64,000 bases of DNA, from contig JACRGD010000007.1 of the NCBI GenBank assembly GCA_016212525.1, positions 284,778 to 348,777 on the forward strand. Reading direction: 5' to 3'. This document shows, one piece after another, positions 31,818 through 53,073 of this stretch (within the stretch, counting starts at the first letter, position 1; each line of letters opens with the position of its first letter). Position numbers and translations under genes: made by a program. Source of the DNA: Candidatus Micrarchaeota archaeon. GTDB lineage: Archaea; Micrarchaeota; Micrarchaeia; Anstonellales; Bilamarchaeaceae. Under the pieces are notes generated by a model. The model saw only the letters and a list, made by a program, of their open reading frames with translations. It had not been told where the DNA came from and searched no databases.

Positions 31818-31866
31818 AAGAACAAATTGGCTAAATCAGTTATAAATAGTAAACCTAAATTGGTGA

Positions 31867-33177: not shown

Positions 33178-33180
33178 AGA

Positions 33181-33540
33181 TTATTCTACAATCACAGTTC
33201 CGGTCAAGCTCGAATCAGTATGATCATGATAACCCCAAAGCCCGGGCTGGTTAAAGGTAAAGGAGAACGTTTCGCCTGATTTTAATGGTCCGCAGGAATC
33301 AAATTTACTCCCAATACACCCACCTTCTTCTGGGTATTGTGCGTGAGTCGGGTGGTTAGCCGAAGCAGGCCAATGCGGTCGATCATCTTTATTTATGAAA
33401 GTAACAGTATCGCCCACAGTTATGTTCAATATTTTTGGAACAAAACCGTTTTTGGTTATCTCTATTGTCTTTCCATTTGAGACACAACCCAAAAATAAAA
33501 ATGCCAGGATAACAGTAAGCAAAATCAATGGTTTTAACAT
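33181..33540 (-). CDS. Small membrane-anchored/lipoprotein cupredoxin-like protein
   Basis: I prefer the start MLKPLILLTVILAFLFLGC (ATG 33540). The beta-rich body contains VGDTVTFINKDDRPHWP...WGYHDH, a cupredoxin-like set of His ligands. Confidence 0.55.
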   Translation of the reverse strand: MLKPLILLTVILAFLFLGCVSNGKTIEITKNGFVPKILNITVGDTVTFINKDDRPHWPASANHPTHAQYPEEGGCIGSKFDSCGPLKSGETFSFTFNQPGLWGYHDHTDSSLTGTVIVE

Positions 33541-33544
33541 ATTA

Positions 33545-34717: not shown

Positions 34718-35754
34718 TCCACCACCTCGAACATACTCATCCATCCCTTATCAGCAAATTCACTCTGGTGGGCATGAAACATATATTTACCAGAATAGGG
34801 AAATCGCATTTCAAGCATCGAACGTTCTCCCTGACCCAGTTCAATTATATCAGTAAATGCATCTGATTCGTTGCGCGTTCCAGTGCGATATTCGTCAAAA
34901 AAGTTCCCGTGAATGTGGATGGAATTGATTGGATCGTTTTCGACCATGTTTCCAATATAAATTCTAACCAGCTCGTCTTTTTTGACTTTAATCGGGCGTT
35001 CCAGATAGTAGAATGCTCGCGTATTTACTGCGTAAATCTCATTTTCGCCATCATAATTCGTATCAAAGGCATTCATTATCATGATTAACTCATTTGCAGG
35101 TTCTCTTGAATTTTTTGGATCGATAATAAACATTCCATAAAGACCTTTTGAGATGTGATCTTTTAGAGGAGTTGAATGACAGTGAAATAGATGAACTCCT
35201 GCGGGTTCAGCTTTAAACTCATAAGTGAAATTTTTTCCAGGATCAACAAAATCAGGAGACATCGAACCATCCATATCTGCGGGATGAAATCCATGGAAAT
35301 GTACAGTGTGTGGTTTGGAACCATTATTTGTGAAATAAATTTTTATTGTATCTCCCTGAGTAGCGCGTATGGTTGGCCCGGGAACCTGATTATTATAAGC
35401 CCAAGCATCGAAAAATACGCCGGGGGCAACCTCAATTTTCTTATCTACTGCATAGATCCAGTATTCTCTTAGGGTCGTATTGTCCAAGAGAGGCGTTTCT
35501 TTGTAATAATTCTTTCGCTCGGAGATGGGCAGCTCGTTAAAGTTCCAGGATTTCATATAAACATCTGGATTAAAATCAGCAGTTGAATAGTTTCCGACAC
35601 TTCCAAAATGGCCAGCCATACCGACCGAGTAGTTAGAGGAAGAAGAATCTTGGACGTGCATTTCTTTTGTTTTTGGAACAAATTCAAAGTAGCCGATGAT
35701 TAGGGCAACTAAAATAATCACTAAAAGTGCAACTGCATAGTTATTATTGATCAT
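34714..35754 (-). CDS. Two-domain multicopper oxidase (NirK-related cupredoxin pair), N-terminally membrane anchored
   Basis: Four Cu-ligand motifs are present: HTVHFHG, FHCHSTPLKDH...M, IHIHG and FHAHQ. An N-terminal hydrophobic helix is AVALLVIILVALIIGYF. Confidence 0.7.
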   Translation of the reverse strand: MINNNYAVALLVIILVALIIGYFEFVPKTKEMHVQDSSSSNYSVGMAGHFGSVGNYSTADFNPDVYMKSWNFNELPISERKNYYKETPLLDNTTLREYWIYAVDKKIEVAPGVFFDAWAYNNQVPGPTIRATQGDTIKIYFTNNGSKPHTVHFHGFHPADMDGSMSPDFVDPGKNFTYEFKAEPAGVHLFHCHSTPLKDHISKGLYGMFIIDPKNSREPANELIMIMNAFDTNYDGENEIYAVNTRAFYYLERPIKVKKDELVRIYIGNMVENDPINSIHIHGNFFDEYRTGTRNESDAFTDIIELGQGERSMLEMRFPYSGKYMFHAHQSEFADKGWMSMFEVVE

Positions 35755-36143
35755 TAAATATCCCTTCCATGTGGATCTTTCTTTGGTTTTCCCAAAAACC
35801 GATAGAGCCTCTCGATAAAATCATTGCTCACAGAATGCTCGATGCGATTGGCTTCTTCATGTATTTTTGCCAGAGGCATGCCAAGAGAATCGACCAGAAA
35901 TGTCTCGATCACGCGATGTTTAAAGTGCATATTCTGGGCGATCTTTAGGCCATCTGGAGTGAGCCGCACCTTACCATATTTTTTCATTGAAACATAACCC
36001 TCACTCGAGAGTTTCTGAAGAGTCATAGTAACAGTATTTTTCGAAAGTGAAAGTGATTTTGAGAGATCGATCGGACGAACACCCTCGCCGCCATCGAGCT
36101 TATCGATAAAACGGCAGTAATCTTCAATAGTCCTGATTTCCAT
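35754..36143 (-). CDS. DtxR/MntR-family metal-dependent transcriptional repressor
   Basis: A winged-helix region (LSLSKNTVTMTLQKLSSEGYV) is followed by HFKHRVIETFL. It is the first gene of the metal operon, and a 1-nt TAATG overlap couples it to the next gene. Confidence 0.8.
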   Translation of the reverse strand: MEIRTIEDYCRFIDKLDGGEGVRPIDLSKSLSLSKNTVTMTLQKLSSEGYVSMKKYGKVRLTPDGLKIAQNMHFKHRVIETFLVDSLGMPLAKIHEEANRIEHSVSNDFIERLYRFLGKPKKDPHGRDI

Positions 36144-37313: not shown

Positions 37314-38189
37314 CTAATAGATTTCCAAGTTTGAAGGCAATGAAGCCGAATATGCCAGCTGTTTAGCCTCATCGCTTATTTTCCTAAATTCAGCCTCATC
37401 GAAAGAACCGGAAACACAACCCAGCGCCACATATTTTGGAAGAAGCTCAGTTAGATAAGCCAGATATCTTTTTTGATAGAATGCATATGCACGCCATTGA
37501 GATTCGCAGACCGGGCCGGCATAGTATTCATGAATGACGTCGGTAGAGGGTCTTGGAGCTCCACGCATATGAGAATAAACTTCTACATCAAAAAGAGCCC
37601 GATCGAAAAACTCATGCATCGGCAAGTGGGCATAGCCACGTGGGATGTATATTTGTGCACCTGGATTGTCAGAAACCAGTTGGAAAATCTGAGTTCGAAG
37701 ATCAACATCCCGTTCATAAGCGATTGCAGCGGATAATTTTAAGTCAGAAACGGGATTTGAAGGGCGATTTCGGGCCAAAAAATAAAGCCAGTTGGCAGAT
37801 AGGCTTAGTTTTTCAGGAGCAACTAAAACAGAACCGGGAGAATGTGAATTTTTATCCAAAACTGCATCAAGATAACCCCAGTCAAACCAATCACGATGAA
37901 CATTTGGAGCAATGCCCGCGTTCACTTTTGAAGTAAAACCATCATAAACAACATCATCTACTGCAGAAAGATGATCTTTCATTTGACCAAAGGCATTTGA
38001 AGGGGAAGAAGGGGTAAGGGTAGCAAAAAATTCAGGAACAATAATTTGACGTTGTGAAGGATTAGAAGCAAGAATTCTTTCGCCTATTTTTCCAAAAAAG
38101 TTTTTATCTGGGCCATATGGAACCGGACCAATAGCACCTGCATGTTCGCCAAAGAAAAAGACAAGGCGGGGCTTTCTGGAACAAAACAT
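37314..38189 (-). CDS. Hypothetical protein (291 aa), last gene of the giant-ORF cluster; weak Tiki/ChaN/erythromycin-esterase-like motif pair
   Basis: LVFFFGEHAG near the N-terminus and PRGYAHLP later recall the GExH...GxxH motifs of the Tiki/TraB/ChaN superfamily. This assignment is very tentative. It lies 31 nt downstream of the 167-aa gene. Confidence 0.45.
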   Translation of the reverse strand: MFCSRKPRLVFFFGEHAGAIGPVPYGPDKNFFGKIGERILASNPSQRQIIVPEFFATLTPSSPSNAFGQMKDHLSAVDDVVYDGFTSKVNAGIAPNVHRDWFDWGYLDAVLDKNSHSPGSVLVAPEKLSLSANWLYFLARNRPSNPVSDLKLSAAIAYERDVDLRTQIFQLVSDNPGAQIYIPRGYAHLPMHEFFDRALFDVEVYSHMRGAPRPSTDVIHEYYAGPVCESQWRAYAFYQKRYLAYLTELLPKYVALGCVSGSFDEAEFRKISDEAKQLAYSASLPSNLEIY

Positions 38190-38220: not shown

Positions 38221-38724
38221 CTATTTCCTAGCTCTTTTTGGAGGCAAAGGCTCCGGTGGAGTAATCTGACGAACACGAAGAGCAGGGGTCAGAGGAGGTG
38301 GATTTCTCATTAAAAGATCAGTAATGGGAGAATGAGTGGGTTTAAGGGATTTAAAAGCAGCAACTAAAGAAGAAGGCAGAGGAATCCCGTCATCGATAAA
38401 ACGTCTGGCGATTTTCACGGTTAAATCAAGATACGTCCGACGTGAACTCGAAGTAGATGAGGATGCTTTTAAAAGTAAATGAGACGTTGCAAAAGTAGCA
38501 ATAGTTTGCCAAAAAGAATCAAAAGAAGTATTTGAGATCAGCCCTAAAATCTCATCTGCGCCACCAGGGTTGGGATTAGCATCAAATTCAAGAATTTTTT
38601 TGGCAATATCATGAACTTTGCTCACGTCAGGATCTAAAGAAGACAAAGCAGACTGCTCTGAGTCGGACAACGATTCGGTCCTAAGAAGTTTTTCAAATAA
38701 CAGGGTAAGTTGGGAATATTCCAT
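38221..38724 (-). CDS. Hypothetical protein (167 aa) translationally coupled to the giant ORF; Pro-rich basic C-terminal tail
   Basis: A TAAATG junction links it to the giant ORF, and GGTGAT lies upstream. The tail is RNPPPLTPALRVRQITPPEPLPPKRARK. No family was recognised. Confidence 0.55.
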   Translation of the reverse strand: MEYSQLTLLFEKLLRTESLSDSEQSALSSLDPDVSKVHDIAKKILEFDANPNPGGADEILGLISNTSFDSFWQTIATFATSHLLLKASSSTSSSRRTYLDLTVKIARRFIDDGIPLPSSLVAAFKSLKPTHSPITDLLMRNPPPLTPALRVRQITPPEPLPPKRARK

Positions 38725-41700
38725 TTAATCACCACTAGTAGATCCTCCATGACGATGCGGAAAGAATAATCTTTCGCCCATTGTTCCAGGGTGGAAACCA
38801 TTTGTTCCGCCATCAGGCATAGCACGACGATTGCTGTCCATATATGCAAAAGGTGCACGAAGAGTAAATGTTGAGTAGCCTTGATTAAGTGGACGGTTCG
38901 CAGGAAGAACAGTGCCATTTGCCATAGTTCTGCTTTCGCCAGATAAAATTACTGGCTCAACGGAGGTGTCAGGCACAAGAGAAGGAGAATCAAGATCGTA
39001 AGAGCGAACTTCAACACCCAGTGGTTCATATCTAGAGCGGAGATTGGCAAGAATCTGGGCCTCAAGTTGTTGTCTTTGTTCAGAGGGAATATCTCTCAAA
39101 CCATAGGCAGGCTGGACCATTATAATGGGCCGACCATCATCGCCAATAAGAAGATTAAGAGTTTGCCGGTATAATGTGTTTGGAGATCCCTCAATTGGAA
39201 TAATTATCTGTCTGATCCAGGGTTGTGCAACAGAACCTACTATTCCTCCAACCACAGGATGTGTGTTTGTCGGGACCTGGCAGGCTTCATTACCAGCCAC
39301 AAGACCATAGCGGAAAGAACGATCGAAATCTCCGGTTTCGCTAACACGATATTGTCGGGTAGAGGAACCATCAGAAACACTAACCGAGAAATCATGGTTG
39401 TTGGTCCACATATTCCAGAGAGCACCAGAATCAACCGATGAATGAGAGCAGACACGATCAAGTTCAGCCCTAAATTCAGGAGGGAATTTAAAGTCCCTAA
39501 AAGTTCCGTTTGCATGGGCTGAGAGTGCACGATCAAGAACTGCGATGGCCTGGGTAAATTGAGCCGAAGTGGAGGTATGGGAACCTATACGCTCGGCCCC
39601 GCCATTAGCTAAAGCAGAGAGAGTATTGCGATAAGTTACATACTGAAGGAAAAGATCGACATTGGAGCTTAGCCATTCTTCAGTAAGATTTGCAGATGGA
39701 ACCAGAGTCCTAAATAGGCGAACACCAGCTTCAATAAATTGATCCGGATGAGCAGAGACACTGGCAATAAATTCGTTCAGTCGTAATGGAGAAATAGCAC
39801 CTGAGCGTGAAAACTCATAGATGCTGTTTATCATGCGGAACCTGCGGTTTATGAAATCGGCCCGGGCATCATCGACAACCCTGCCAGAACCCCTAAGCCG
39901 GCCTAGCTCACCTGATACAGAATCAAATACCCGATTTATTGCATCGGAATGTGCGATTCCAAGCAAACCAGAATAATAAGAGTCAAGAGATGTTTGAGTG
40001 TAGCGGGCAGGAGCAAGAAGACGAACCATAAATCTTCGTGAAGATGCAGGATCACTAAAGGTTGCATATTCCTGAGCATCATGCCTTACATATCCATCAA
40101 AGCGATAACCAACTTGTTCTGCCATGATACGCGGATGATGACCTACCCGCATAGTAGCTAACTCTGGACTAAGAGTAAAGGGAGTTGCAGAAGCAGGAAC
40201 CCCCTCTACAATAAGACCCTGATTACTTGCATCTGTATATTCAGAGCGCTCTCGAGCATAGTTAATTAATAACTGGGCAAAATCGGCATACGCACGATCG
40301 TTTGGCATGGCCTGTCTGATAAGCTTAACATCAAAAACCCTAAATGGATTTGAAGTCTGCGAACCAATCTGGGGACTCCTCAGCATAAGCTCTCCTAGAA
40401 TTGGGAGTCTGCGAATCCTTCTTGGATGCAAATCCCGATTTGCACCGACAACCAGAACTCCACTGTCTCTTGCCTGTGCATCTAATTCAGATACCCGGCC
40501 AAGAAGTTCTTCTGAATGCGAATAGTTTCGAGCGCACAAATCAAGATAGATTGATCTTAAACCCTCTGGCAATCTGGATGCGTCCTCAAGTGCCATCCTA
40601 AACATATTGCCAAGGGCAGCATGAGACTCTGGAGGACTTGATCTAAGGCTAGATGCAAAAAAAGAAAGGACTCCATTAATTGGTTCAAGATTATTTTGAG
40701 GTCTTGGAAACAGACTAAATAGATCAAAGCGCGAATCAGTAGATCCAAGTGCACTACCTACCAAAAGAGAGCTCAGGGATTCGGGATTTGTAACGGCCAG
40801 GCGGGCACAAACATAATAGAGATCGGCTGAACCGGACGTAATAGTAGTGGCATCGAAAGACTCGTATTGACTCCACACACGATATGAATACCTGATTGCC
40901 TCATAATATTCCGAATATACAGAATTAATTCTCTCTAAAGGCACGTGTTCGACAATATAACGGGCAGACTCAACGATACTATCGATACGACTACGATTAG
41001 GCCCGCTAAAACCAACGGCATGTTCAATATCCCGTGAGATCAAAGCAGAAATCATAGATGACTCAAGACAATCAGCCAAAGTCGGCTGCACATGACCTCT
41101 CGCCTGAGCATATCTCATAGCCAGAGCGGCACCAACCGCCAAATCAGGATCCGCATGCGGATTTGAAGCGGCTTGCTGAATCTGCTGGGCCCGGGACACC
41201 AGATCAGCGGAAATTTGGATTAGACGTGCAGTATAAGACAAAGAGGAACTTTCATTAGGGTAACCAAAAACAATATCCCTAAACATAGGATCTGACCTAT
41301 GAGATATAAAAAATTCCAGGGCAGGAGCATACTGGGCAGCTGCAACATCAGGAGCAACACCATGCGCAACTGCATCTCGAACCAGATCGCGCATTGCAAT
41401 AACAAGCGGCCCTCCTCTTTGAGCAACTATTTGGTCTGCTTGAGCACAAAGTTCGCGACCCAATGAAGATTCAGGAACATTTCTTAGGCGCCCTACAGAA
41501 GCGGCATAGTCAGGATGAACGCGCTCAACTTCCCGCATAGTAAGATTACCACTACGAACTTCATCAACCAGACGCCAGAGAAAAATTCCTACAGTTCGAT
41601 TATCATCGGTTAGATGGGGCATGAGCAAACTTCTCACTCTGGCCCAGGCCTGCTCGTTTGAGACAATATTGTGAACAACATCACGCTCGAGTGCTTCCAC

Positions 41701-44700
41701 AGTTGCCAGATCAACATTTGTTGAATTTGCTAAAATAGACTGAGCAACCACGCGAACAGATGGAGATGGAGGAGCAATAGAAGCTACTGGTTCAGAGGTT
41801 TGAGGTGCCCTGGCAGAAGCTCTCTGATCCAGAGCAGCCAAGGCACTGGAAATACCCGCCCTATAATAGGAGGCCCTTTCTTCAGAAGACACAGACGCGG
41901 GATCTACACACCGGACATAAATAGATGATTTTTCTTCTCCACGCTTAAGAGTAAAGCGAACATATGTTTCATCACCTACCTGAACGGCGCCATCGAATCG
42001 ATAGGCTGCACCATCAGAAGCAGTAACCTGAACAGCCCCAGGACTTAGATCGGACCCAAGAACTGCGCCAGGACTCCTTGCACGGCCACTAACAACAACT
42101 GCAGATTCTGGAAGATCAAGTAAAAAGTCGGCACTTGAGGTGGAAGTTGAGGTTGTAGTAGTCGATGAGGCCTGGGAAACCGGAGCAGTCCGAGACATTA
42201 CTGGAGGTTGAGGAGTCCGTGTGCTTGTGGCATCAGGCATGGCAGAGCGATTCTCGCCATCAGCGACGCCGGCAGCGAGCTGAGCTAGAGGTTCTGCCAC
42301 CTCCTGAACAGGAATCCTTGGAGCAACACGTGTTTCAACGCGATTAGGCCTTTGTGGAGAGGGTCTTTGATTTGGCGGAACAGTAGGCAACTCATCAACT
42401 TCGATAACTTCCGGCTCAGAACCGGGAGGATTGATTGTGGTTGGTCCCTGATGCCTGGCCGATTCGGCAAGCGGTCCCGGTCGTGCAGAAGCATCAAACA
42501 AATCTACACCAGTGTGTACCCGAAGCTCGTCTGCAGTAGTAAAGAACCGATCTGCATTTTCCCGGCTAACTCTGCCCGCAGACACTTCCACATCTAATCT
42601 TGCACGGACATATTCACGGTAGCCCGAACCATAACTCGCTCGTTGCTCAGCGGTAATAGTACCGGCAGTAACCATCGCATCCAGATCATGGTTCATCTGC
42701 TCCTGGGTAGTATGACGACCTTCAAGAACCATATAGCCGAACTGATTTGATACACCAAGTTCGGGATGATTGGGGTCATTAATTCCATAACCAACCCACT
42801 GGCCAGCAGTATTTGCCCGATAAAGAGCAGCTGCAACTTCGTACATATTATGAACATCGTTTCCGCTAATGTTTGGATCACTCTGCATGCCTAAATGAAG
42901 AAGGGCAACATCAGCAGCACCCTGCTCGAGCTGATTGTGCTGGGCTCGTGCCTGGGGAGTTCCCATTTCATTTTGCAGGTTTGCCATTTCATCTGCATGC
43001 ATTGTGAAGCGATAATTATTACGTGCAATTGGACGAGGGGCAACGTTTCCCTGATAGGTGAGATTGGCAACTGATGGAACTGCTCCAAGACCTCCAGTTG
43101 CAGTTGCAAGGCCATAAACTCCTCCATCATGATCTGCAAGGACACGCGCACGCGCTGCGGCCATTTCCGGAGTAACCGGACGTGGGGTCGATGAAACGTC
43201 CCTAGACGCAACTGCGGCGGAATGTGCAACCTCAACCGGAGTAACGGCAACCGGATCCTCTGGATGTGATGCATTGTAATTATCCAGACCAGTAGTAACA
43301 TCGCCTATCAAAAACTCAGAAGAGGCATTTCCAAAGTCCCGGTGCAACACAGAAACATCATGAACAGGATTTCCATTTGCATCACGGACCTGCTGGCCGT
43401 TTTGCATAACCGGCTCGATGCGCATTGCGACTCCATCCATATCAATCGCAACCGCTGCAGTTCGTACAACCGTGCCGTCTCTTAATCGACCTACAGCATA
43501 ACCGCTGTTGGCAGAACGACGATCGCCAAGTGCAATTTCACTTGCGGCATTATGATAATCATAAAGACTTCTGAAAAATTCGGATCGACCTTCTTCAGTT
43601 CGCATCTCATCGTAGAAAGCACGAACTGCCGGAGCTGATCTTGGATCATTCAATGCAACAGATGGCTCGTCAATTATCTCATCACTCATGAGGGCAAGAC
43701 CATCGATATACATTTCCCTTATTGTCCCATCAGGCATTCGGACATTCTGCCAGGTTCCAACTAAATCATGGATGTCCTGCATAATTCCGTAGTTGACCTG
43801 CTCGGGATTTCCACTCTGATAGGTTCTTCCATTTTCAAATGTATAGCCATGATAATGACGGGCAGTAAGAATACCTTGTGTACGGGCCAACTCTTCACCC
43901 AGCGCGGCAGCCTGTAGATCCTCAGTTTTGACAAATATTCTTCGAGTAGTTGATGGAGCACCATTTTCCCCGGGAATTTCAAGAGTAACTGCATATGCAC
44001 CACTAAGCCCTGCACGATAACTAACCCCGGTTATAGATGCCCTCTCAAATCCAGGTATCGTATGAATATTGTGTTCAAGTCCGCCAAGGGCAACCAAATC
44101 TGCAAATGCGCGGGCACCCTCAAGAGCCTGTGCCATAGTAAGGGAAGTAGGCTCACGATAAGTAATTCCACGAGAAGCCAAAAAGCCACAAATTCCCTCG
44201 AACTCGATTCGTTGCGGGACATTTAATCGGGCGATATTATTTACAGAGTGCTTCATTGCCGCAGTACCTGAAGAAACAAATGATGCTCTTAATTGTTGAA
44301 ATTGTTCCGGGGTTGCACCATGAGAAGTCAGAAGTGCATCCAGAGCATCAAGATTTCCCCCTGATAAAAAGGCATCACGCAGCTGGTTTTTGAGGGCATC
44401 CCTTCTCGCACCTGGTTCGTGAATTAGTGCGGTCGCTATTGCATCTGCACCACCTTCTGCATATTGCCTAAGAAGCATTCTTTGCATTTCTGGATTAATT
44501 GGTCCATGACCTTCTGCTGCAAAGGACATTTGCGCCCGCATCTGATCAACTGAAGCAGTTGCACCAGCCTGATCTAAAGTATGATTTAAGGCAGTTGTAG
44601 TATCAGCCAGACTAGTATTAAGACCCGCAAAACCGGAAGTTCTTAGTGCTTCAGTGAGCGCAGGAACATCAAAACCCAAAGCCGTCAGTTGAGGGGCAAC

Positions 44701-47700
44701 CGCAGGAATGCCACGATCAACATAGCCATTTCTCAGAGATTCTGCTGCATTTGGAGAATAATGCTGAGCCCTTCTTTCGCTTTCAGTAGTAGTTGTAGGG
44801 TTAGTACGCACTCGGCCACTTTCATTAAATGCAGTAACCCAGTCGTGGAAGAATCGCTGTTGTTGCAATGGATTTCGTTCGGCAAGACCAACTGCAAGGC
44901 TTCTTGCAAGAACCGGGTTTCCAGAAAATGATCGCAATGAATCGACCACAAGTCTTCCGGTTTCTTGACCCAATAGTTCGATCGCCCGGGCTTCGAATTG
45001 AGGCGAATTGATAGAGCGAATCAGATCTCTTCCTTGCTTTATCGATCCGTTTGGAGCGCGAAGATACTGATCTGAGAGAGTTGCAAGACCTTCTGCAGCA
45101 TGAGGATCCAAAAGTGCATGTGCCATATTAACCGCACGCTCTGCATATTCGGTCTCGGGTCTAGGCATCTGTGGCATCCGTGGAGCTGGCTGCTCACTAA
45201 ATCGGGCATAGGCAGTAGAAACCAACCCCGGTTCGCTAGCAGTACCGATTCCAAAGCCCCGCATATAAGCCTGGAATTGGGCAGGTGTTCCGCGAGCTGC
45301 GGCCCTAAATGCCTCGTTGGAAGTAAGCAAGCGAACGGCTTCCTGCCCAGAGGAAGATAGAGTTGCCAGAAGTGGATCGACACTACCCTCACGACGAACT
45401 GCCGCACGGGCCAGTGCTGCAAGATCTTCAACAGAGCGAATTTCAGATGGAACAGTAAACTCATGTCTTCTTCTTTGCTCAGCACGCCTGAGTCTGGCAA
45501 GCGGATCGGCGCGGGGAACGGAAGTTGTAGAAGTAACACCGGGAGCAACCGGCCTAAGCGGCGCTGGAGTAGCTGCAACCGGCGCAGGCAGAACTCCCGC
45601 CCTCACAAGCGCCTCATGGGTCAATCGTAATCTCACCGGATCAGTAGCCCGCTGGAATTCAGGACGATTAGAAAGTTCGGCTACAACGCGAGCAGTATTC
45701 AAAGTACCAAGTGGATTGGAATTTGCAGCTGGATCCATAACACGCAGATTTCGAAATGCTACCTGCTCAGTAACCGGACCGGAACTACTTGCAAGTGCAG
45801 CAGCACGGACAACCTGAGCAGTTTGAGTATCTGAAATCGGAATTGTAGTAAAATCATTGGCATATGCTACTGCAGCAAGTTCAGAAGTGCGACTATTCGC
45901 TCGCATAACTGGAGCATATACTTCATGAATCGCCAGTGCAACTACAGCCATTGCAGGCGTGAGAGTTGGTGAAGTTGTAACTGGAGCTTCAAGAGGACGA
46001 ATGGCAACAGGAACTTGCCTGGCAGTGCCAAGAACCCGAGTCTGTGGAGCGACCCGGGCAGTAGTTGGAGAAGTACCATTAAGACCAGAAACAAATTCTG
46101 GATTCGAAAGCAAAAGGAGCGCGAGAGTTCCGACATCTGCAGGCAGACCAGCCAGGCCAGCTGCACGCTGAGCCTGCTCACGGGTTACCACTGCTGTTGA
46201 TGAACCCCGCTGCTCATGCAAAGAAGTTGCAAGAGCAACTGCAGATCGTAAATTTTCCCGCTCTGCCGGAGGCATGTTTGCAAATACAGGATCAGATGAA
46301 TTTGAACCGGAAAATAGACGCTCTCTAGTACGCGCAAAGTTTTCCCTTGCAGCAGAAACGAAATCAGTAAGTTCGGGAGTAACACTTGAGTAGCCTTCCA
46401 AAGTACCTATGAGTGCCTGGGTATTTGGCAATGTCTCGGATTCAGAAATATGATGCGCAAGGAACAGCCGCTCGCCTGCGCTCAAATAGCGACCCAAAGT
46501 CGCCTCCACTGAACGAAGAGCTGCCTGACTAGAAGCCGGAAGAGCACCAAGTATTGCATCTGCATGCGCCTCATAAGCAGCAATTGCATGTGATAGAGCA
46601 ACCGGATCCCGGGCCAGTGCACTGCCCTCGCCAGAAATCATACGCAAAACATCATGACGTAATTCGAGACTGTCTGGAACTCCTGAGAGTGCCATTGCCC
46701 GATTGAAGTTCTCGCGCGTCTGTGCATCGAGGGATTGTGAAAGAGTTCTGACCCGCTCCGAAAGTCGGGCATTGTACATTTGAGCGGCCTGGTATCGATT
46801 GACACCGAAAAATCCAGCCATTGCAAATCGATAAGCTCTTGCACGGAAACTCGTTCCGAAAACCAATGAAGAATTGGCCTCACCGACAAGCTGGAAACCG
46901 CGCATCAAGCCAGGCTGGGCAGCATTGAAGAAAATCAGGCCATATTCAAATAGACCGGCTCCAGGATCACTATGCCATGTTTCATAAACAGAGCCCACAC
47001 CGATCGCAACTCCGCCAAGGCCCATAAAATAGGCCAGACCAGTATTGACTCGTTGGAGATTGAGAAGGGTGGCTTCGCCAACTAGGGCAGTCCCGCTAGG
47101 TGCGAGTTCGCCGCCAAGTTCAGTTGCCAGTCCACCTAAACCATGACTAACTACACCAATGCCGGCAAGCGCAATCCCACCAAGTCCCAAAACCCTCTGA
47201 AGAGTAGTGAGATTCTCTGCACCGCCAACAGCTCGGGCCTGATCGAAATAACCGAAGGTCGATTCGCCAAGGAAGAATGGCGCAACAAGAACACCAAAAC
47301 CAGTTGCAGAGGCAAAACCTGCACCAAGAATTCTTCCAGCCATAGCTACATTTGAATAAACCCGCTCGCGCCGAACACCGCGCTCGACAAACTCCGCTGA
47401 ATCATAACGCTGGGTTCTTGCATTATCAACGTTGGTTTCAATTGTCATAAGCTGGCCGGGACTAAGAACGCCACCGGGGCTTTGTGTAATTGTGGCAAAC
47501 GCAGTTCCCAAAAATCCGAATGATCTGGTAAGTGAATCGAATGAGGATTGAGCCTGCCTTGCAGACACAGAGCCCCTAAAAGTCAAATTAGTCGCACTGA
47601 ATCCCGGAGTAAGAGTCGCAACTGTATTTGTGAAATCATCATCAACCTGCTCACTGATAGAAAGAATGCGATCGATATGACGTCTCTGATCAACAGTATA

Positions 47701-50700
47701 TGAAACCGGACGATAATGAACGCGCGCAGTCGGATCAGTATTTGGGATAGCGGCAAAGCCCAGATCAGCAAATACAGCAGCAGTATGGACATCGGTGAGT
47801 GTCAGACGTGCAGGTAATCCAAGTAGGGAATACCTTTGATTCAACTGATCGGCACGTAATTGTCTAAATTGAGAAGGCAAGGTACCGTCTTCAATGGAAG
47901 CGGCAACGTGAGTTGGATCTGCAATTGCACTGCCACCAAGCAGACCAAATTGATGCGCGCGATCTCGCATGACCGTGGCACCTTGAGGATCTAAGCGACC
48001 TGCAGCGTAGAGCCGATCTGCAGCAGCAAGAACAGTTGATTCTTCGCTTGCCATATGAAGTGCAACGTCACGTGCAGTCTCAGTTACTGATAAACGTCTA
48101 AGTCCATCAACATGATCTGCCTGAACCAAAAGGAACCGCTCTGCAGTTTCGCTAAGATCGCCCCGCGCTCGCAATAGACCAGTTCCACGGCGAAGCAGAT
48201 CAGGATGATGCAAAAGATAATCCATGACAGCAGTATCGCCACCAGTTTGAAGGGCATCGGCGAGTGCGTGCATGTGAACTGCGTATTGACGATCAACTCC
48301 GCCAAGGCCACGAGTCGGACCCGCGTCGCCCAGTTCAGTTACAATGCTTCGTGTGATCTCAATTGGAACCATATCACTTGCAGAGTTAAGATTTTCCCGC
48401 GCAGCAGCAAGAGCATGTGCTCGCTGCTCGGCTGCATTTGCATCAGCAGTTGCAGTGGCTGCAACCTGATCCAGATTTGCATCGCGCCGAACCTGTGCAC
48501 CATTTGGACTTAGAGTCCGATGGCCATGCGCATCAACATCATAATACACCCCTGCATATTGGCGGGCAGCAGCACGAAGAGCATCGGCAGTCCTTTGATT
48601 AGCCGTCTCCATATTGTAGAGCGTCTGACGCCCCTGATAAGTGGGAATAATGTTGGTTGAAAGATCATCGAAAAGCAGGTTGCCCGCCTGGACATGACCC
48701 GCCTCAATTTGACGTAGGGCCCGACCGGCCTGTCCCAAGAGGAACGCAGTGTCAAATTCTGCCATGCTTCCAGCTTCACGCTCCTCTGGACTGGCCTGTG
48801 CCAGCAGAACATCATGAGCACCAAATAGACCGACACGGATACTGCGCTCTCGAACCCGACCAGCTACACGCATTATTAATCGCTGTGCAGCTGCCAAATG
48901 ACCAGACCGGGCCTCGACTCTTGCACGCTCAAGATCATTATGTAAAGCCTGACCATCCACAATTGCAGTCGTGGTCGGGGCCAGATGATATCCGCCATCG
49001 CCATGAAGAACTACTTCCCGATCATGCATGACTCTGCCTGAAGAATCAGTAACCGAGGCAACAAGTTCCGTAACACTGCCATCAGCAGAAGTCGCAGTTC
49101 GCACAAGCCGGGCAGCCATATTGCGAATCGCAATAATTCGGGTTACCTGAGCATAGCCGGAACTAAAATCATGTCCTGCATCGCGAAGCCGATCCTGATT
49201 CAATTGGACAAACCCCGAACTCATAGGTTCAGTTCTGGATCCAACTTCAGAAATAGTTTGCTCGAAATTATCAGCAGCCCGAACCAATGCGAATCGGCCT
49301 GCAGTAGAGGGAACTGAACCGGCTGAAGTTACAACGTCCCGATGGAGCATGAAAGTTGCATTAGAGAGACCCAGACTGGCCTGATGCAGCATATTTGCCT
49401 GGGCCGTTAAATCCCGCGCATGCCTGCGCAAAATTTCGATCGCAAAGGCCTGATCATCATGGCCGGTTTCCCTCCTTGCAGTTTCTATTGCCGCAGCATA
49501 TTCAGGGCCACTTAGAGTAATTGCTGCCCTCTGATACAAAGCAGCTTCTGCAAATCTCGCCCCTGCCAGGTCGAGTGCACCCTGTGCATGAGTCATCCGC
49601 TCGCTTGCACGCACTGGATCAATAAGAGCTGCTTCACGGGAATAGAGAAGCATGTGAGAGGGGTTGGATGCACCAGAAGAAAATCTTCTTAATCGTGCAG
49701 ACTCACGCGCATAAGCCCTGGAAGTCGCTCCAAGAGCCATAGACTGGGTTCGCAATTCTGCACGAGCGTGCTCAAGCCGCATTTCCAAAGCGGAAAGATC
49801 GGCTTCTAAAATTTCACAAAGCTGGATTTGTGCAGAAAGAGCCTCGGAATAGACATGAGGCTCGCCATTTTCATTACGAACCATTGATGAACTACGCTGG
49901 CCCTCATAGCTCAGAGAAGGATTAAGTGACAGAATAATTGCACCGAAACTTTCTCCAGAGCGCATGCGGCGCTCCAGTTCAGCAAGTGGAGGAATTTGGA
50001 TTCCACTGGAAGTAGTAAAACCATGTTCATATTGGGCTGCAATTGTTGGATCATGACTAGCTGCAGCAAGAGTAACACTGTCAGCCATTGCACCAAGGAC
50101 TCCGATGTTTGCGCCCTGGCCGTTTTGAACCTCTAATAGAGAAAGTCGGGTAAAGCGGCCAAACATTGCACGTGCAGCCGGATCAGTAATTGCAGCAAGA
50201 GGAGCGCCACGGCTTAGATAGATCTGAGCTGCATTAAGTGATTCAGTTACGTTGGAATAGGTATTTGGATTGTTAATATTTCGACCAATTTCCAAGCGAT
50301 CCGGAGAATTGGTAGAATATGCCTGTGCAAATAGAAGAGCTGAAACTGCATGTGGCAAATCAGAAGTGAAGATCGAATCAAGTGCTGCTGCATAGTAACG
50401 GGCGGCATCTGCACGATTAGCAGGCGGTGCATGCGAAAGCGATTCGCGGGCATTTTCCAATTGAGATGAATACGAAGCGATTACTGGAGCAGATTGATCT
50501 GGACCAGATATCGCAATATGCCGAATCTGGGCAGAACTACCAAACAAAAGCGCAGTAGCCAAACGTAGTCTTTGCAGCTCTGAATCAGCAATTGTTTCAC
50601 CCCTATTGAGAATAGAAAGGGCATCATTAAGACGACCCAAAAGCCTCTGATATGCAGGATAGAGTTCACCGCATGCACGACGGTTTCTACATAAGACCTC

Positions 50701-52206
50701 AAGCCGATATCGGGATTCGCTAAGTGCAGTGACAGTTGAAAGGCGGGACATATTGAGATTTTGCTCAGAGGCAGCAGCCAAAATGACAGATCGGGATTGT
50801 TGATCGCCATGAAGATAAGCACGGGAAGCACCAAAGAGAGAACTGATTTGTTCAAATGGTGAGCCCGCGCCGATGTGAGCAAATAAATTAGCAATTATGC
50901 GGTTGTATCCACTAAGAGATTCTGCTCCAAAGTTACGTGGAATTCCAGAGCGGTCAGACGCAACTTCATGGGCAATTTCAACAAAACCAAAAATACGCTG
51001 GATGTTTTGAGAAGTAGGATCGAGTCGCAAGAGAGCAGCTCTGGTCTGCCTGAATTGTTCAGATAGTACTGCATCAGAGGGAACCTGAACTGCGGCTAAA
51101 AGAGTTTGAGTAAGAGAATGGATATCTGGATTTGGACCAAGAAGGGCAGCGATAAAGTTACGATCGGCAGGAAGATGGCCAAGTGAAATTGCTCTCGCAC
51201 TAAGAGAAATAAACTGGGCCAGCTCAGATTGCCCTGCAAGGGAAAATTCGATCGATCGTGTGCAAAGAGAAATGACATCGCGTCTTGGTGATTGGGATAA
51301 AATCTCAGTTGCACTTTCAAGTGCACCTCCAATTGAACTGAGGGTTTCAAGACCTGCACGATTTGGTAATCGACCCGAAGAAAGCGAATTTTGAATAGCC
51401 TCGAGCCGTTCTCGGGCGGCCTCCAATTGCCTTGAGAGAGCAGGATCCAGATTCCGCTCCATCAGATCGTCGCAATGACCTATGAGTCGCTCGACCCGCT
51501 CTGCGGTATTGGACCTTGCAAGAGTCAGATATTCTAAAAGAGAAGAATTTGAAGCGCGAAGGTTAGTAAGTAAAAATTCATTTGTTACTGAGGTATTTGA
51601 AAAATGTCTAAACACGGAACCATATTCAGGAAGCGCAGCCTGATCCAAAGATAAGACATCATGATTAGTCAGAAGAAGACCCACATAAGAGAGAGTAGAG
51701 GTTAGAAGCTCGGCATTTGGAGTCGAAGGATTTAGTGATCGAACAAAAGCAGCTCGAACCCCGGCAATCTCAGCTTGATCAAATCCAGCTTCGCGCATAT
51801 GCTGGACTGTTTCGACCAGAGATCCAAAATTTTCGACGCCAGCCCTAAGGGCATCACGCGCGGCAGGAGTAGGCGAACGCGCATAAGTTTGTGCAAGACC
51901 AGTAAGCGCACTAATTTCAGGGTTAAACTCCCTCTCAGCAGTGGCATCGAGCATACTTCGGACAAGACGCTCGACATAAGATGGAGTCGGAGGCAAAGTA
52001 CCTGCAAGTTGCCGTCCAAGATCCCGCACTGATTCGCGGGCAGCGTCTGCACGGGCAGCCGCATCGGAGAGGGGTGAGGATGCAGTTGGCTGACGGGTTG
52101 TGGGAGCACCTACAAGGGGAGCCAATGATTCACGCAGATGATCGGTAGCCTGGGCAGCTTGTTGATCAGCCAATTGTTCAGGAGTACGAAAATTTGGTCC
52201 AACCAT
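38725..52206 (-). CDS. Giant protein (4,493 aa) of unknown family: a lysine-depleted, Ala/Arg/Ser/Leu-rich multidomain protein
   Basis: A single uninterrupted 13,482-nt ORF with TAAATG coupling at both ends. Codon and amino-acid usage differ visibly from the flanks. There is no N-terminal signal peptide. Its sub-features are listed separately. Confidence 0.85.
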   Translation of the reverse strand: MVGPNFRTPEQLADQQAAQATDHLRESLAPLVGAPTTRQPTASSPLSDAAARADAARESVRDLGRQLAGTLPPTPSYVERLVRSMLDATAEREFNPEISALTGLAQTYARSPTPAARDALRAGVENFGSLVETVQHMREAGFDQAEIAGVRAAFVRSLNPSTPNAELLTSTLSYVGLLLTNHDVLSLDQAALPEYGSVFRHFSNTSVTNEFLLTNLRASNSSLLEYLTLARSNTAERVERLIGHCDDLMERNLDPALSRQLEAARERLEAIQNSLSSGRLPNRAGLETLSSIGGALESATEILSQSPRRDVISLCTRSIEFSLAGQSELAQFISLSARAISLGHLPADRNFIAALLGPNPDIHSLTQTLLAAVQVPSDAVLSEQFRQTRAALLRLDPTSQNIQRIFGFVEIAHEVASDRSGIPRNFGAESLSGYNRIIANLFAHIGAGSPFEQISSLFGASRAYLHGDQQSRSVILAAASEQNLNMSRLSTVTALSESRYRLEVLCRNRRACGELYPAYQRLLGRLNDALSILNRGETIADSELQRLRLATALLFGSSAQIRHIAISGPDQSAPVIASYSSQLENARESLSHAPPANRADAARYYAAALDSIFTSDLPHAVSALLFAQAYSTNSPDRLEIGRNINNPNTYSNVTESLNAAQIYLSRGAPLAAITDPAARAMFGRFTRLSLLEVQNGQGANIGVLGAMADSVTLAAASHDPTIAAQYEHGFTTSSGIQIPPLAELERRMRSGESFGAIILSLNPSLSYEGQRSSSMVRNENGEPHVYSEALSAQIQLCEILEADLSALEMRLEHARAELRTQSMALGATSRAYARESARLRRFSSGASNPSHMLLYSREAALIDPVRASERMTHAQGALDLAGARFAEAALYQRAAITLSGPEYAAAIETARRETGHDDQAFAIEILRRHARDLTAQANMLHQASLGLSNATFMLHRDVVTSAGSVPSTAGRFALVRAADNFEQTISEVGSRTEPMSSGFVQLNQDRLRDAGHDFSSGYAQVTRIIAIRNMAARLVRTATSADGSVTELVASVTDSSGRVMHDREVVLHGDGGYHLAPTTTAIVDGQALHNDLERARVEARSGHLAAAQRLIMRVAGRVRERSIRVGLFGAHDVLLAQASPEEREAGSMAEFDTAFLLGQAGRALRQIEAGHVQAGNLLFDDLSTNIIPTYQGRQTLYNMETANQRTADALRAAARQYAGVYYDVDAHGHRTLSPNGAQVRRDANLDQVAATATADANAAEQRAHALAAARENLNSASDMVPIEITRSIVTELGDAGPTRGLGGVDRQYAVHMHALADALQTGGDTAVMDYLLHHPDLLRRGTGLLRARGDLSETAERFLLVQADHVDGLRRLSVTETARDVALHMASEESTVLAAADRLYAAGRLDPQGATVMRDRAHQFGLLGGSAIADPTHVAASIEDGTLPSQFRQLRADQLNQRYSLLGLPARLTLTDVHTAAVFADLGFAAIPNTDPTARVHYRPVSYTVDQRRHIDRILSISEQVDDDFTNTVATLTPGFSATNLTFRGSVSARQAQSSFDSLTRSFGFLGTAFATITQSPGGVLSPGQLMTIETNVDNARTQRYDSAEFVERGVRRERVYSNVAMAGRILGAGFASATGFGVLVAPFFLGESTFGYFDQARAVGGAENLTTLQRVLGLGGIALAGIGVVSHGLGGLATELGGELAPSGTALVGEATLLNLQRVNTGLAYFMGLGGVAIGVGSVYETWHSDPGAGLFEYGLIFFNAAQPGLMRGFQLVGEANSSLVFGTSFRARAYRFAMAGFFGVNRYQAAQMYNARLSERVRTLSQSLDAQTRENFNRAMALSGVPDSLELRHDVLRMISGEGSALARDPVALSHAIAAYEAHADAILGALPASSQAALRSVEATLGRYLSAGERLFLAHHISESETLPNTQALIGTLEGYSSVTPELTDFVSAARENFARTRERLFSGSNSSDPVFANMPPAERENLRSAVALATSLHEQRGSSTAVVTREQAQRAAGLAGLPADVGTLALLLLSNPEFVSGLNGTSPTTARVAPQTRVLGTARQVPVAIRPLEAPVTTSPTLTPAMAVVALAIHEVYAPVMRANSRTSELAAVAYANDFTTIPISDTQTAQVVRAAALASSSGPVTEQVAFRNLRVMDPAANSNPLGTLNTARVVAELSNRPEFQRATDPVRLRLTHEALVRAGVLPAPVAATPAPLRPVAPGVTSTTSVPRADPLARLRRAEQRRRHEFTVPSEIRSVEDLAALARAAVRREGSVDPLLATLSSSGQEAVRLLTSNEAFRAAARGTPAQFQAYMRGFGIGTASEPGLVSTAYARFSEQPAPRMPQMPRPETEYAERAVNMAHALLDPHAAEGLATLSDQYLRAPNGSIKQGRDLIRSINSPQFEARAIELLGQETGRLVVDSLRSFSGNPVLARSLAVGLAERNPLQQQRFFHDWVTAFNESGRVRTNPTTTTESERRAQHYSPNAAESLRNGYVDRGIPAVAPQLTALGFDVPALTEALRTSGFAGLNTSLADTTTALNHTLDQAGATASVDQMRAQMSFAAEGHGPINPEMQRMLLRQYAEGGADAIATALIHEPGARRDALKNQLRDAFLSGGNLDALDALLTSHGATPEQFQQLRASFVSSGTAAMKHSVNNIARLNVPQRIEFEGICGFLASRGITYREPTSLTMAQALEGARAFADLVALGGLEHNIHTIPGFERASITGVSYRAGLSGAYAVTLEIPGENGAPSTTRRIFVKTEDLQAAALGEELARTQGILTARHYHGYTFENGRTYQSGNPEQVNYGIMQDIHDLVGTWQNVRMPDGTIREMYIDGLALMSDEIIDEPSVALNDPRSAPAVRAFYDEMRTEEGRSEFFRSLYDYHNAASEIALGDRRSANSGYAVGRLRDGTVVRTAAVAIDMDGVAMRIEPVMQNGQQVRDANGNPVHDVSVLHRDFGNASSEFLIGDVTTGLDNYNASHPEDPVAVTPVEVAHSAAVASRDVSSTPRPVTPEMAAARARVLADHDGGVYGLATATGGLGAVPSVANLTYQGNVAPRPIARNNYRFTMHADEMANLQNEMGTPQARAQHNQLEQGAADVALLHLGMQSDPNISGNDVHNMYEVAAALYRANTAGQWVGYGINDPNHPELGVSNQFGYMVLEGRHTTQEQMNHDLDAMVTAGTITAEQRASYGSGYREYVRARLDVEVSAGRVSRENADRFFTTADELRVHTGVDLFDASARPGPLAESARHQGPTTINPPGSEPEVIEVDELPTVPPNQRPSPQRPNRVETRVAPRIPVQEVAEPLAQLAAGVADGENRSAMPDATSTRTPQPPVMSRTAPVSQASSTTTTSTSTSSADFLLDLPESAVVVSGRARSPGAVLGSDLSPGAVQVTASDGAAYRFDGAVQVGDETYVRFTLKRGEEKSSIYVRCVDPASVSSEERASYYRAGISSALAALDQRASARAPQTSEPVASIAPPSPSVRVVAQSILANSTNVDLATVEALERDVVHNIVSNEQAWARVRSLLMPHLTDDNRTVGIFLWRLVDEVRSGNLTMREVERVHPDYAASVGRLRNVPESSLGRELCAQADQIVAQRGGPLVIAMRDLVRDAVAHGVAPDVAAAQYAPALEFFISHRSDPMFRDIVFGYPNESSSLSYTARLIQISADLVSRAQQIQQAASNPHADPDLAVGAALAMRYAQARGHVQPTLADCLESSMISALISRDIEHAVGFSGPNRSRIDSIVESARYIVEHVPLERINSVYSEYYEAIRYSYRVWSQYESFDATTITSGSADLYYVCARLAVTNPESLSSLLVGSALGSTDSRFDLFSLFPRPQNNLEPINGVLSFFASSLRSSPPESHAALGNMFRMALEDASRLPEGLRSIYLDLCARNYSHSEELLGRVSELDAQARDSGVLVVGANRDLHPRRIRRLPILGELMLRSPQIGSQTSNPFRVFDVKLIRQAMPNDRAYADFAQLLINYARERSEYTDASNQGLIVEGVPASATPFTLSPELATMRVGHHPRIMAEQVGYRFDGYVRHDAQEYATFSDPASSRRFMVRLLAPARYTQTSLDSYYSGLLGIAHSDAINRVFDSVSGELGRLRGSGRVVDDARADFINRRFRMINSIYEFSRSGAISPLRLNEFIASVSAHPDQFIEAGVRLFRTLVPSANLTEEWLSSNVDLFLQYVTYRNTLSALANGGAERIGSHTSTSAQFTQAIAVLDRALSAHANGTFRDFKFPPEFRAELDRVCSHSSVDSGALWNMWTNNHDFSVSVSDGSSTRQYRVSETGDFDRSFRYGLVAGNEACQVPTNTHPVVGGIVGSVAQPWIRQIIIPIEGSPNTLYRQTLNLLIGDDGRPIIMVQPAYGLRDIPSEQRQQLEAQILANLRSRYEPLGVEVRSYDLDSPSLVPDTSVEPVILSGESRTMANGTVLPANRPLNQGYSTFTLRAPFAYMDSNRRAMPDGGTNGFHPGTMGERLFFPHRHGGSTSGD
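39964..40107 (-). repeat. Internal protein module copy 2 (aa 4034-4081)
   Basis: YRFDGYVRHDAQEYATFSDPASSRRFMVRLLAPARYTQTSLDSYYSGL shares the YRFDG, Y.(T/R)F, VR, (P/A)A and SYY.G positions with copy 1. It starts 632 residues downstream of copy 1. Confidence 0.6.
41854..42003 (-). repeat. Internal protein module copy 1 (aa 3402-3451): YRFDG...VR...P...SYY.G
   Basis: YRFDGAVQVGDETYVRFTLKRGEEKSSIYVRCVDPASVSSEERASYYRAG aligns by eye with copy 2. Confidence 0.6.
42130..42490 (-). other. Pro/Ser/Thr-rich low-complexity linker in the giant protein
   Basis: The sequence is ARPGPLAESARHQGPTTINPPGSEPE...PPNQRPSPQRPNR...TRTPQPPVMSRTAPVSQASSTTTTSTSTSS. Confidence 0.6.
43400..44040 (-). other. PI3K/PI4K-like (atypical kinase) motif region of the giant protein (about aa 2723-2935)
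   Basis: RRIFVKTEDLQAAALGEEL (K2760) resembles IFKxGDDLRQDxL. ALGDRRSAN (D2895...N2900) resembles GDRHxxN. AIDMDG (D2922/D2924) resembles IDFG. The order and spacing match a kinase catalytic core. Confidence 0.4.
46800..47360 (-). other. Central Gly-rich hydrophobic cluster of the giant protein (about aa 1616-1802), putative membrane-insertion module
   Basis: Hydrophobic stretches include AMAGRILGAGFASATGFGVLVAPFFLG, VLGLGGIALAGIGVVSHGLGGLA, GLAYFMGLGGVAIGVGSVY, GLFEYGLIFFNAA and AYRFAMAGFFGV. GxxxG motifs recur. This is the only strongly hydrophobic region in the protein. Confidence 0.55.
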
Positions 52207-52524
52207 TTAGTTCACACTCTGATAGCAGAAAATTACAAACTCCTGCAAATTTTTAATGCGCTCATAAGAGGGAGCATTAGAACTACGAAGAATGAGAGTC
52301 TGACGGGTCCAGTGTTCAAGATCAGAAAGAAACCGCTTATGTTTTTGAAAAGAATTTGCATATTTTTCTTTTTCCTTTGAACCTTCCCAGATCGCAATAG
52401 CACCAGAAAGAGAAGTCAGAGTCAGATTTACTTTTTGAATTACAAGTTCCTCAACCTGATCGAGATTTTTCTCACTAACACCACCATCAACTCCCAGCAG
52501 GGAGGCCAAAGTCTGATCTGCCAC
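52207..52524 (-). CDS. Hypothetical protein (105 aa), first gene of the giant-ORF operon
   Basis: It has a GTG start with no Shine-Dalgarno motif and a TATA-like box at leaderless distance. Its stop TAA abuts the giant ORF ATG. No family was recognised. Confidence 0.5.
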   Translation of the reverse strand: MADQTLASLLGVDGGVSEKNLDQVEELVIQKVNLTLTSLSGAIAIWEGSKEKEKYANSFQKHKRFLSDLEHWTRQTLILRSSNAPSYERIKNLQEFVIFCYQSVN

Positions 52525-52839: not shown

Positions 52840-53073
52840 GTGAACTTTGAGATGTACAAGTTATCGGCAACAGTAGAGAAAGATGGAAAATGGTACGTGG
52901 CCCATTGTATGGAACTACAGATAACTAGTCAGGGCAAAACAGTTGAAGAAGCACTGGCAAATCTAAAAGAAGCACTAGAACTATATGTAAAAAATGCTGA
53001 TTCGGATGAACTGGAACACCTAAAAACAGCCCATGATGAAGCTCCCTTAATTGCCACCATAACCGTGGGTTAA
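52840..53073 (+). CDS. hicB: HicB-family antitoxin (UPF0150-type, short form)
   Basis: Contains YKLSATVEKDGKWYVAHCMELQITSQGKTVEEALANLKEALELYV, the typical HicB N-domain. The start is either GTG 52840 or ATG 52852. It overlaps hicA by 1 nt. Confidence 0.75.
   Translation: MNFEMYKLSATVEKDGKWYVAHCMELQITSQGKTVEEALANLKEALELYVKNADSDELEHLKTAHDEAPLIATITVG

Follow-up and report, generated by a model that had tools for sequence, protein, structure and literature searches.

A previously undescribed domain family with a predicted protein kinase-like fold in giant proteins of Micrarchaeota

The PI3K/PI4K kinases and their relatives are usually regarded as eukaryotic. PI3Ks lack a classical glycine-rich loop and need the histidine of the DRH motif in their catalytic loop. 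Kinase-fold domains also occur in translocated bacterial effectors, such as the Legionella proteins LegK/MavQ/LepB and SidJ. Among the DPANN archaea, host manipulation is to our knowledge largely unknown, and we know of little annotation for most DPANN giant genes. SPEARE giant proteins have been described from Nanohaloarchaeota, which belong to DPANN (PMC6642349, PMC10266531). Here we describe a kinase-like domain encoded within a giant open reading frame (ORF) of a Candidatus Micrarchaeota archaeon (assembly GCA_016212525.1, contig JACRGD010000007.1, positions 284,778 to 348,777). The window is the whole 64,000-nucleotide stretch that was analysed, and coordinates are counted from its first letter.

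The domain resembles the bacterial kinase effectors in being a divergent kinase-fold module in a large protein of a host-dependent organism, with a presumed host-directed role. It differs from them in being archaeal; the sequences show no relation, any delivery would be hypothetical, and we know of no secretion system for such cargo in this archaeon. Going by their description, SPEARE proteins share with the giant protein a length of several thousand residues, a place in the reduced genomes of archaeal episymbionts and a presumed part in host interaction. Their domain content is different: here there is a kinase-like domain and no recognised Pfam domain, and roughly one cluster in four has been purged of lysine. 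The protein kinase-like (PKL) fold and effector-type kinase domains are already known; what is new is a family that all curated profiles have missed, carried by unannotated giants. The giant gene and its kinase-like domain comprise the following features.

38725..52206, minus strand: giant ORF of 4,493 aa (13.5 kb), from the ORF list and its translation
42907..44142, minus strand: kinase-like (PKL-fold) domain, aa 2689-3100 (~400 aa), with a conserved core at ~aa 2698-3089
43999..44010, minus strand: glycine-rich loop G2733-L-S-G2736, between predicted strands beta1 and beta2
43944-43888, minus strand: lysine motif of the giant protein, RRIFVKTEDLQAAALGEEL, starting at aa 2755
43927..43929, minus strand: K2760 (codon AAA), where predicted strand beta3 ends; putative ATP-binding lysine
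43539-43498, minus strand: catalytic-loop motif, EIALGDRRSANSGY, starting at aa 2890
43507..43524, minus strand: predicted catalytic loop D2895-R-R-S-A-N2900 (family consensus D-R-x-x-R-N)
43452-43426, minus strand: VAIDMDGVA, starting at aa 2919
43435..43443, minus strand: D2922-M-D2924, counterpart of the DFG metal-binding motif (family consensus I-D-x-D)

Residues ~2689-3100 of the giant protein belong to a genuine family of domains, present in about 40 protein clusters. When 1.84 billion representative proteins were searched exhaustively by HMMER with aa 2600-3100, 43 matches were returned, 29 of them below 1e-10, nearly all in proteins of 3,000-7,300 aa and with a common segment at aa ~2698-3090. 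Local re-mapping found one or two domain copies per homologous protein and identified two of the 43 matches, P0036 and P0037, as repeat-protein artefacts. Forty-three homologous domain copies were aligned with MAFFT (alignment A1), to which the conservation counts below refer. D2895, N2900 and D2922 are each present in 43/43 copies, R2896 in 41/43, D2924 in 40/43 and K2760 in 37/43. The glycine loop is similarly well kept (G2733 40/43, G2736 43/43), while E2762 (29/43) and D2763 (31/43), which directly follow the lysine, are found less often. G2770, G2778, D2811, Y2884 and D2957 are also invariant or nearly so. The consensus reads G-x-R-G-A-[YF] ... R-x-x-F-V-K-x-E-D-L-x-P-A ... F-G-I-x-E-D-I-H-D in the N-terminal part and A-Y-x-E-M-S-R-R-A-L-L-x-D-R-x-x-R-N-T ... 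T-F-Q-P-I-D-x-D in the C-terminal part.

The original prediction, made from the window sequence, had placed three kinase-like motifs at K2760, D2895...N2900 and D2922/D2924; all three are present at these residues and coordinates, and the residues it named are the most conserved columns of the alignment. It was also correct that the catalytic-loop histidine is replaced and that DFG has become DMD. R2897 occupies the His position of DRH, a position that varies across the family, and the third motif is D-x-D family-wide. Taken alone, the motifs are weak evidence, since the generic pattern D(x4)N...Dx[DGF] is expected ~1.3 times per shuffled protein of the giant's composition and the specific K...DRxxxN...DxD arrangement, found in 0.25% of shuffles, was chosen after the fact. 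The claim is carried instead by conservation across the 43 copies. A chance co-occurrence of the trio in a non-enzymatic region, which the ~1.3 expected occurrences of D(x4)N...DxD/G at this protein size would otherwise favour, is hard to reconcile with motifs that form the invariant columns of a 43-member family and fall on the active site of a kinase-like structure modelled with confidence. We consider it refuted by the family, its conservation pattern, the AlphaFold2 model and the Foldseek matches, and give it next to no weight.

Every homologue whose source is named comes from Micrarchaeota, Micrarchaeia or Bilamarchaeum. A scan of GTDB representative genome contigs with the domain found no relatives, and Pfam recognised no meaningful domain in 13 homologues. 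A word-indexed homologue search, run with the domain and with the family alignment, returned nothing although relatives exist, and is uninformative for proteins of this composition. Literature searches turned up no description of this family, of a PI3K-like kinase in DPANN or of lysine-free archaeal giants. The family is previously undescribed and, by named sources, has so far been seen only in Micrarchaeota. Two full copies of the domain lie 1,000-1,900 residues apart in P0004, P0005, P0008 and P0030; P0006 has a divergent second copy, and other giants show a second, partial N-lobe-like match.

Amino acid composition offers a natural test of K2760. The giant protein contains 8 Lys (0.18%), as against 3-12% Lys in neighbouring ORFs. 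Twelve of the 43 representative proteins are Lys-depleted, eleven of them below 0.4% K and P0015 at ~1%, and the remainder contain 3-10% K, so that the distribution is bimodal. The K2760 position is nevertheless Lys in 14/14 domain copies from the Lys-depleted proteins, and in 11/14 it is the sole Lys in ~400 residues. Its retention in independent copies, despite near-complete purging of lysine, makes it almost certain that K2760 is chemically required; this fits the lysine that binds the ATP phosphates in kinases. These counts also bear on whether the module is a pseudokinase or serves a purely structural or scaffolding role without catalysis. Loss of the Lys from 6/43 copies would be compatible with this, and those giants that have two copies could include a regulatory pseudo-domain. 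The catalytic residues are intact and invariant in the giant protein and most of its relatives, though, and conservation of the Lys in 14/14 purged copies would be hard to understand if it had no chemical role. We therefore regard a non-catalytic module as highly improbable.

AlphaFold2 run on alignment A1 yielded a model with a mean predicted local distance difference test score (pLDDT) of 91.8 and a predicted TM-score (pTM) of 0.91. The model begins with two N-terminal helices, followed by strand 36-43, the glycine loop and strand 49-56. Strand 65-72 (beta3) ends at K2760, which is model residue 72, and is succeeded by an alphaC-like helix (77-88) and a long hairpin (96-122) that ends at the conserved D2811; beta4-beta5 and the hinge come after the alphaC-like helix. 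An inserted hairpin bearing the conserved R-L-P-D-G (aa 2823-2827) precedes further helices. A long alphaE-like helix (183-202) then leads into D2895...N2900 (model 207-212), and a beta-hairpin (213-232) stands directly before D2922-x-D2924 (model 234-236), beyond which lie a loop and a long helix (264-292). The predicted structure has its elements in kinase order, with a beta-rich N-lobe and a helical C-lobe.

A Foldseek search of the PDB with this model gave 13 matches at E<=1e-3, all of them PI4KIIIβ, PI3Kγ, Vps34 or PI3KC2α, the best at E=3e-5 with probability 1.0; the remaining places in the top 50 went to PI3K isoforms, DNA-PKcs, IGF1R and JAK2 JH2. Among the predicted viral structures of BFVD, a phosphatidylinositol kinase ranked first (3.9e-4), with another PI3K, a CotH kinase and numerous Ser/Thr kinases below it. 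The proposal of a phosphoinositide-kinase-type or atypical-kinase core is thus supported at the level of fold. Foldseek returned almost only kinases, with PI3K/PI4K/PIKK first in two independent libraries, and the structural check that had been suggested revealed both kinase-fold matches and a bilobal architecture. The accompanying likeness to PI3K/PI4K in particular holds for the fold and not for the sequence, where there is no PF00454 match and profile-profile comparison is not significant.

We propose that the domain is an active ATP-dependent phosphotransferase of a new PKL-fold family. It would be a module within a giant protein that probably associates with a membrane, in an archaeon that depends on a host. 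We put the probability of this proposal at roughly 70%. ATP would bind between the N-lobe, where the glycine loop (G2733-G2736) and K2760 on beta3, touching the alpha and beta phosphates, are situated, and the helical C-lobe. Mg2+ would be held by N2900 and D2922, possibly also by D2924. D2895 of the D-R-x-x-x-N loop likely acts on the acceptor hydroxyl, allowing the gamma-phosphate to pass to the substrate. Our results establish the domain and its family, together with their conservation pattern, predicted fold and gene context; ATP use and phosphotransfer are what we infer here, as are the substrate, membrane association and a host-directed role. Our estimate for the substrate is a protein at ~35%, a lipid or head-group at ~25% and something else at ~40%. 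A lipid would suit the PI3K/PI4K neighbourhood and a hydrophobic block elsewhere in the giant protein, but it is not suggested by the Gly-rich loop, by the absence of the His or by an activation loop that is not basic. Most plausibly the giant protein, encoded with a conserved small partner gene, would act at or in the host cell of the DPANN symbiont.

Several results weigh against this proposal. Pfam, NCBIfam and PDB hidden Markov model (HMM) searches were empty, whether run with the giant protein, its domain, the family profile or 39 family members. Comparison of A1 with PIK3CA alone by hhalign gave a probability of 0.2%, and comparison with a class I PI3K profile gave 1.7% (P=0.03), which is not significant. 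The catalytic loop lacks the DRH His, and the Phe-Gly of DFG is absent (I-D-M-D here). Foldseek TM-scores are low (0.22-0.32) and root-mean-square deviations large, so the likeness is one of fold and local structure and not of close superposition. Convergence of K2760, D2895, N2900 and D2922 on a single predicted pocket rests on topology instead of superposition. No clearly conserved acidic partner for K2760 was identified in alphaC, nor a conserved Glu in model helix 77-88. In six of the 43 copies, all from Lys-normal proteins, K2760 is replaced by S, T or N; these copies may be inactive or work differently. Finally, enzymes with a kinase fold can carry out other chemistry.

The last point raises the alternative that the domain is a kinase-fold enzyme that does not phosphorylate, such as an AMPylase, a glutamylase or another nucleotidyl or acyl-adenylate transferase. 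SelO and SidJ are kinase-fold enzymes of this kind. The fold and the Lys/Asn/Asp set would also be compatible with such an activity, and D2924, D2811 and D2957 are conserved without being standard kinase residues. The combination of D(x4)N plus Asp, a canonical Gly loop and a beta3 Lys is, on the other hand, the classical configuration for phosphotransfer, and neither a SelO nor a SidJ structure was present in the Foldseek PDB top 50. We judge chemistry of this type to be quite unlikely.

The best structural matches of the domain in both PDB and BFVD belong to PI3K/PI4K/PIKK (PF00454; PI4KIIIβ 8q6g, PI3Kγ 1e90/8dp0, Vps34 2x6h), and it could be a true, very divergent member of PI3K/PI4K, phosphorylating an inositol lipid such as host or symbiont archaetidylinositol. 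As in PI3K/PI4K, the Lys lies on beta3 in an F-x-K-x-acidic-D-L context, the D-R...N loop has equal D-to-N spacing, and an Asp follows a beta-hairpin. PI3K/PI4K/PIKK rank above protein kinases in both Foldseek libraries, and Arg comes after the catalytic Asp (D-R, as in DRHxxN), not before it as in HRD. F-x-K-x-E-D-L resembles F-K-x-G-D-D-L, the catalytic loops form the best hhalign match, and the hydrophobic block of the giant protein is membrane-like.

The sequence comparisons argue the other way. PF00454 gave nothing at E<=1 for the giant protein or the 39 family members, and nothing at E<=0.1 for the domain alone; sequence and profile searches of the PDB yielded only noise, with no PI3K chain matched by the family HMM. 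The PIK3CA kinase-domain query used with hhalign was verified (775 bits to PIK3CA 736-1068), and the class I PI3K profile consists of 87 sequences, class I only. In the comparison with this profile, the best local segment sets ...L-L-x-D-R-x-x-R-N... on ...G-I-G-D-R-H-x-D-N..., that is, loop on loop, while a greedy alignment is collinear, pairing F-v-K-x-E-D-L with F-K-n-G-D-D-L and the hinge segment G-I-x-E-D-I with G-m-I-E-V-V; neither is significant. The collinear alignment with the PI3K profile is suggestive but not significant as sequence evidence.

Unlike PI3K, in which 13 residues separate the catalytic loop from the metal-binding Asp, the domain has 22. It also differs from PI3K/PI4K in having D-x-D for DFG, a variable residue at the DRH His position, a classical Gly-rich loop, the inserted R-L-P-D-G beta-hairpin and a conserved C-terminal extension of ~90 aa, and in its place within giant archaeal proteins. 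By eye, the activation segment (aa 2925-2956) shows no basic cluster, and TM-scores do not exceed 0.32. With the profile comparison not significant and the DRH His and DFG Phe-Gly absent, the domain is not filed under PF00454, and true PI-kinase membership seems unlikely. Nor is there a Pfam match to the eukaryotic-type protein kinases (PF00069). The domain shares with these the bilobal fold, a GxxG loop, the beta3 Lys, D(x4)N and a metal-binding Asp. It differs from them in having Arg after the catalytic Asp (the loop reads G-D-R-R, not H-R-D) and no APE motif, and they rank below PI3K/PI4K in Foldseek. As modelled, the domain would work like a PKL-fold kinase with PI3K/PI4K as its nearest known folds.

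The purging of lysine extends well beyond the domain. A neighbour-joining tree built from the kinase-like domains intermixes copies that are Lys-free with copies that are Lys-normal (P0005/P0014, P0004/P0016, P0021/P0024), and on one Micrarchaeota contig a Lys-free giant (P0006) is encoded together with a Lys-normal one (P0009). This suggests repeated gain or loss of purging, or domain shuffling. The few lysines left in the giant protein seem to be conserved among its Lys-free orthologues. Judged by eye, P0002 and P0003 have Lys where K3961 and K4240 stand, and P0002 also has equivalents of K3421/K3426. K4240 lies in an F-K-F motif of the C-terminal domain and is invariant in a second alignment, A2, described below. 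The surviving lysines may mark essential sites. Lysine deserts have been discussed for proteins of the eukaryotic ubiquitin system and for bacteria that use pupylation (PMC10665810, PMC10169902); the first of these papers nowhere mentions archaea.

Arg makes up 8.8% of the giant protein. AGA and AGG account for 29% of its Arg codons, with CGT the commonest, compared with 58% AGA+AGG in 15 neighbouring genes. AGR enrichment is expected from recent single-base Lys-to-Arg changes, and the giant gene shows the opposite. The low AGR content could mean that codons a single change away from Lys have long been avoided, or that the gene has a different origin. The GC content at third codon positions (GC3) of the giant gene is host-like, at 0.30-0.41, on which basis recent foreign acquisition was rejected as the cause of its high GC; the excess GC is due to an Ala/Arg/Gly/Pro-rich composition.

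The giant protein recurs, identical, on an independent Logan assembly. P0002, present in three assemblies, is its orthologue (54% identity). Searches of Pfam, NCBIfam and PADLOC found no family for the giant protein or its cassette partners, and a reading of the locus as a defence system was rejected, PADLOC giving no match. An N-terminal signal peptide was not seen by eye. Residues 1-1500 are shared throughout with P0002, while other homologues, P0003 for example, match them only in short stretches, and aa 1900-2300 are variable and Ala/Pro-rich; the kinase-like domain at aa 2689-3100 is common to nearly all relatives. Two further conserved regions can be recognised.

46507..47709, minus strand: conserved block aa 1500-1900, putative membrane-insertion region, from hydropathy scans
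38728..39909, minus strand: C-terminal conserved domain aa 4100-4493, weakly GNAT-acyltransferase-like, from alignment A2

The aa 1500-1900 block is common to P0002, P0003, P0004, P0015, P0019 and P0022. It contains three Gly-rich, moderately hydrophobic helices (~1626-1648, 1672-1692 and 1720-1740) and, judged from its sequence, may be a membrane anchor or insertion region. The C-terminal domain is common to P0002, P0003, P0013, P0016 and P0019, and its invariants in A2 include K4240, C4309-Q4310, P-W-x-x-Q and Y-x-D-x-N. Its AlphaFold2 model has a pLDDT of 71.6. Nearly all of the Foldseek PDB top 50 are GNATs, though weakly so (best E=8e-3, TMt <=0.51), and there is no Pfam match. As a candidate GNAT it is unproven; an amine or lysine acyltransferase within a lysine-free protein would be a suggestive pairing.

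This pairing bears on a more ambitious interpretation, in which the domain would be the catalytic head of Micrarchaeota-specific giant effectors that insert into the contact with the host archaeon or cross it, a PI3K/PI4K-related kinase for a host membrane lipid or host protein, and the Lys purge, which seems to have arisen more than once, would be protective. Absence of lysine would then keep the protein from being tagged or degraded by a lysine-directed system of the host, or from being acted on by the acyltransferase at its own C-terminus. We regard this interpretation as speculative and rather doubtful.

Three ORFs flank the giant gene, and for one of them counterparts were located beside other giant genes of the family.

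52207..52524, minus strand: small ORF of 105 aa (ORF-finder start) abutting the giant gene upstream; conserved partner with normal Lys content
L002 5829-6062, and L005 3118-3459 and 26404-26742: counterparts of the small ORF at other loci
38221..38724, minus strand: 167-aa ORF immediately downstream of the giant gene, syntenic at the P0002 locus (29% identity, E=6e-17)
37314..38189, minus strand: 291-aa downstream ORF, in the same position at the P0002 locus (43% identity, E=2e-84)

The small upstream ORF is 56% identical to the ORF upstream of P0002 (77 aa) and 28% identical (E=5e-14) to that upstream of P0006, with a paralogue upstream of P0009. Four distant giant genes of the family thus each have a small helical protein of ~77-113 aa encoded directly upstream. 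Library scans assigned the small upstream ORF to no known family, and its product is a candidate chaperone or adaptor. Both downstream ORFs are conserved with the P0002 locus only; the 291-aa ORF has no Pfam, NCBIfam, PADLOC or PDB relative. The wider neighbourhood contains the following.

~52852-53306, plus strand: HicA-toxin and DUF7387 gene pair, likely a toxin-antitoxin module (mapped from L001 2390-2844)
53670-54596: PhoU/MazE-domain protein
30357-36143, minus strand: metal-homeostasis cluster, downstream of the cassette
35754-36143, minus strand: MntR/DtxR-type regulator
34714-35754, minus strand: two-domain multicopper oxidase
33545-34744, minus strand: ZIP transporter
31867-33177, minus strand: Nramp transporter

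The HicA/DUF7387 pair lies between an acylphosphatase gene and the giant-gene cassette. A thermosome encoded in the window scores 618 bits to Cpn60_TCP1 and is 83% identical to thermosomes from Candidatus Micrarchaeota metagenome-assembled genomes. Rfam and tRNA scans of the window found nothing.

A kinase-fold domain with an intact predicted active site provides a concrete enzymatic handle on the giant proteins of Micrarchaeota. Its Lys-purged relatives amount to a natural mutational scan, in which the retained Lys identifies the residue to mutate. Matched Lys-free and Lys-normal paralogues, found even within one genome, offer material for studying lysine avoidance. For kinase evolution, the family would add a lineage that is invisible to sequence profiles and has PI3K/PI4K as its nearest folds. 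Should the effector interpretation prove true, DPANN would have its first enzymatic family of host-manipulating effectors, and the PI3K/PI4K kinases an archaeal branch.

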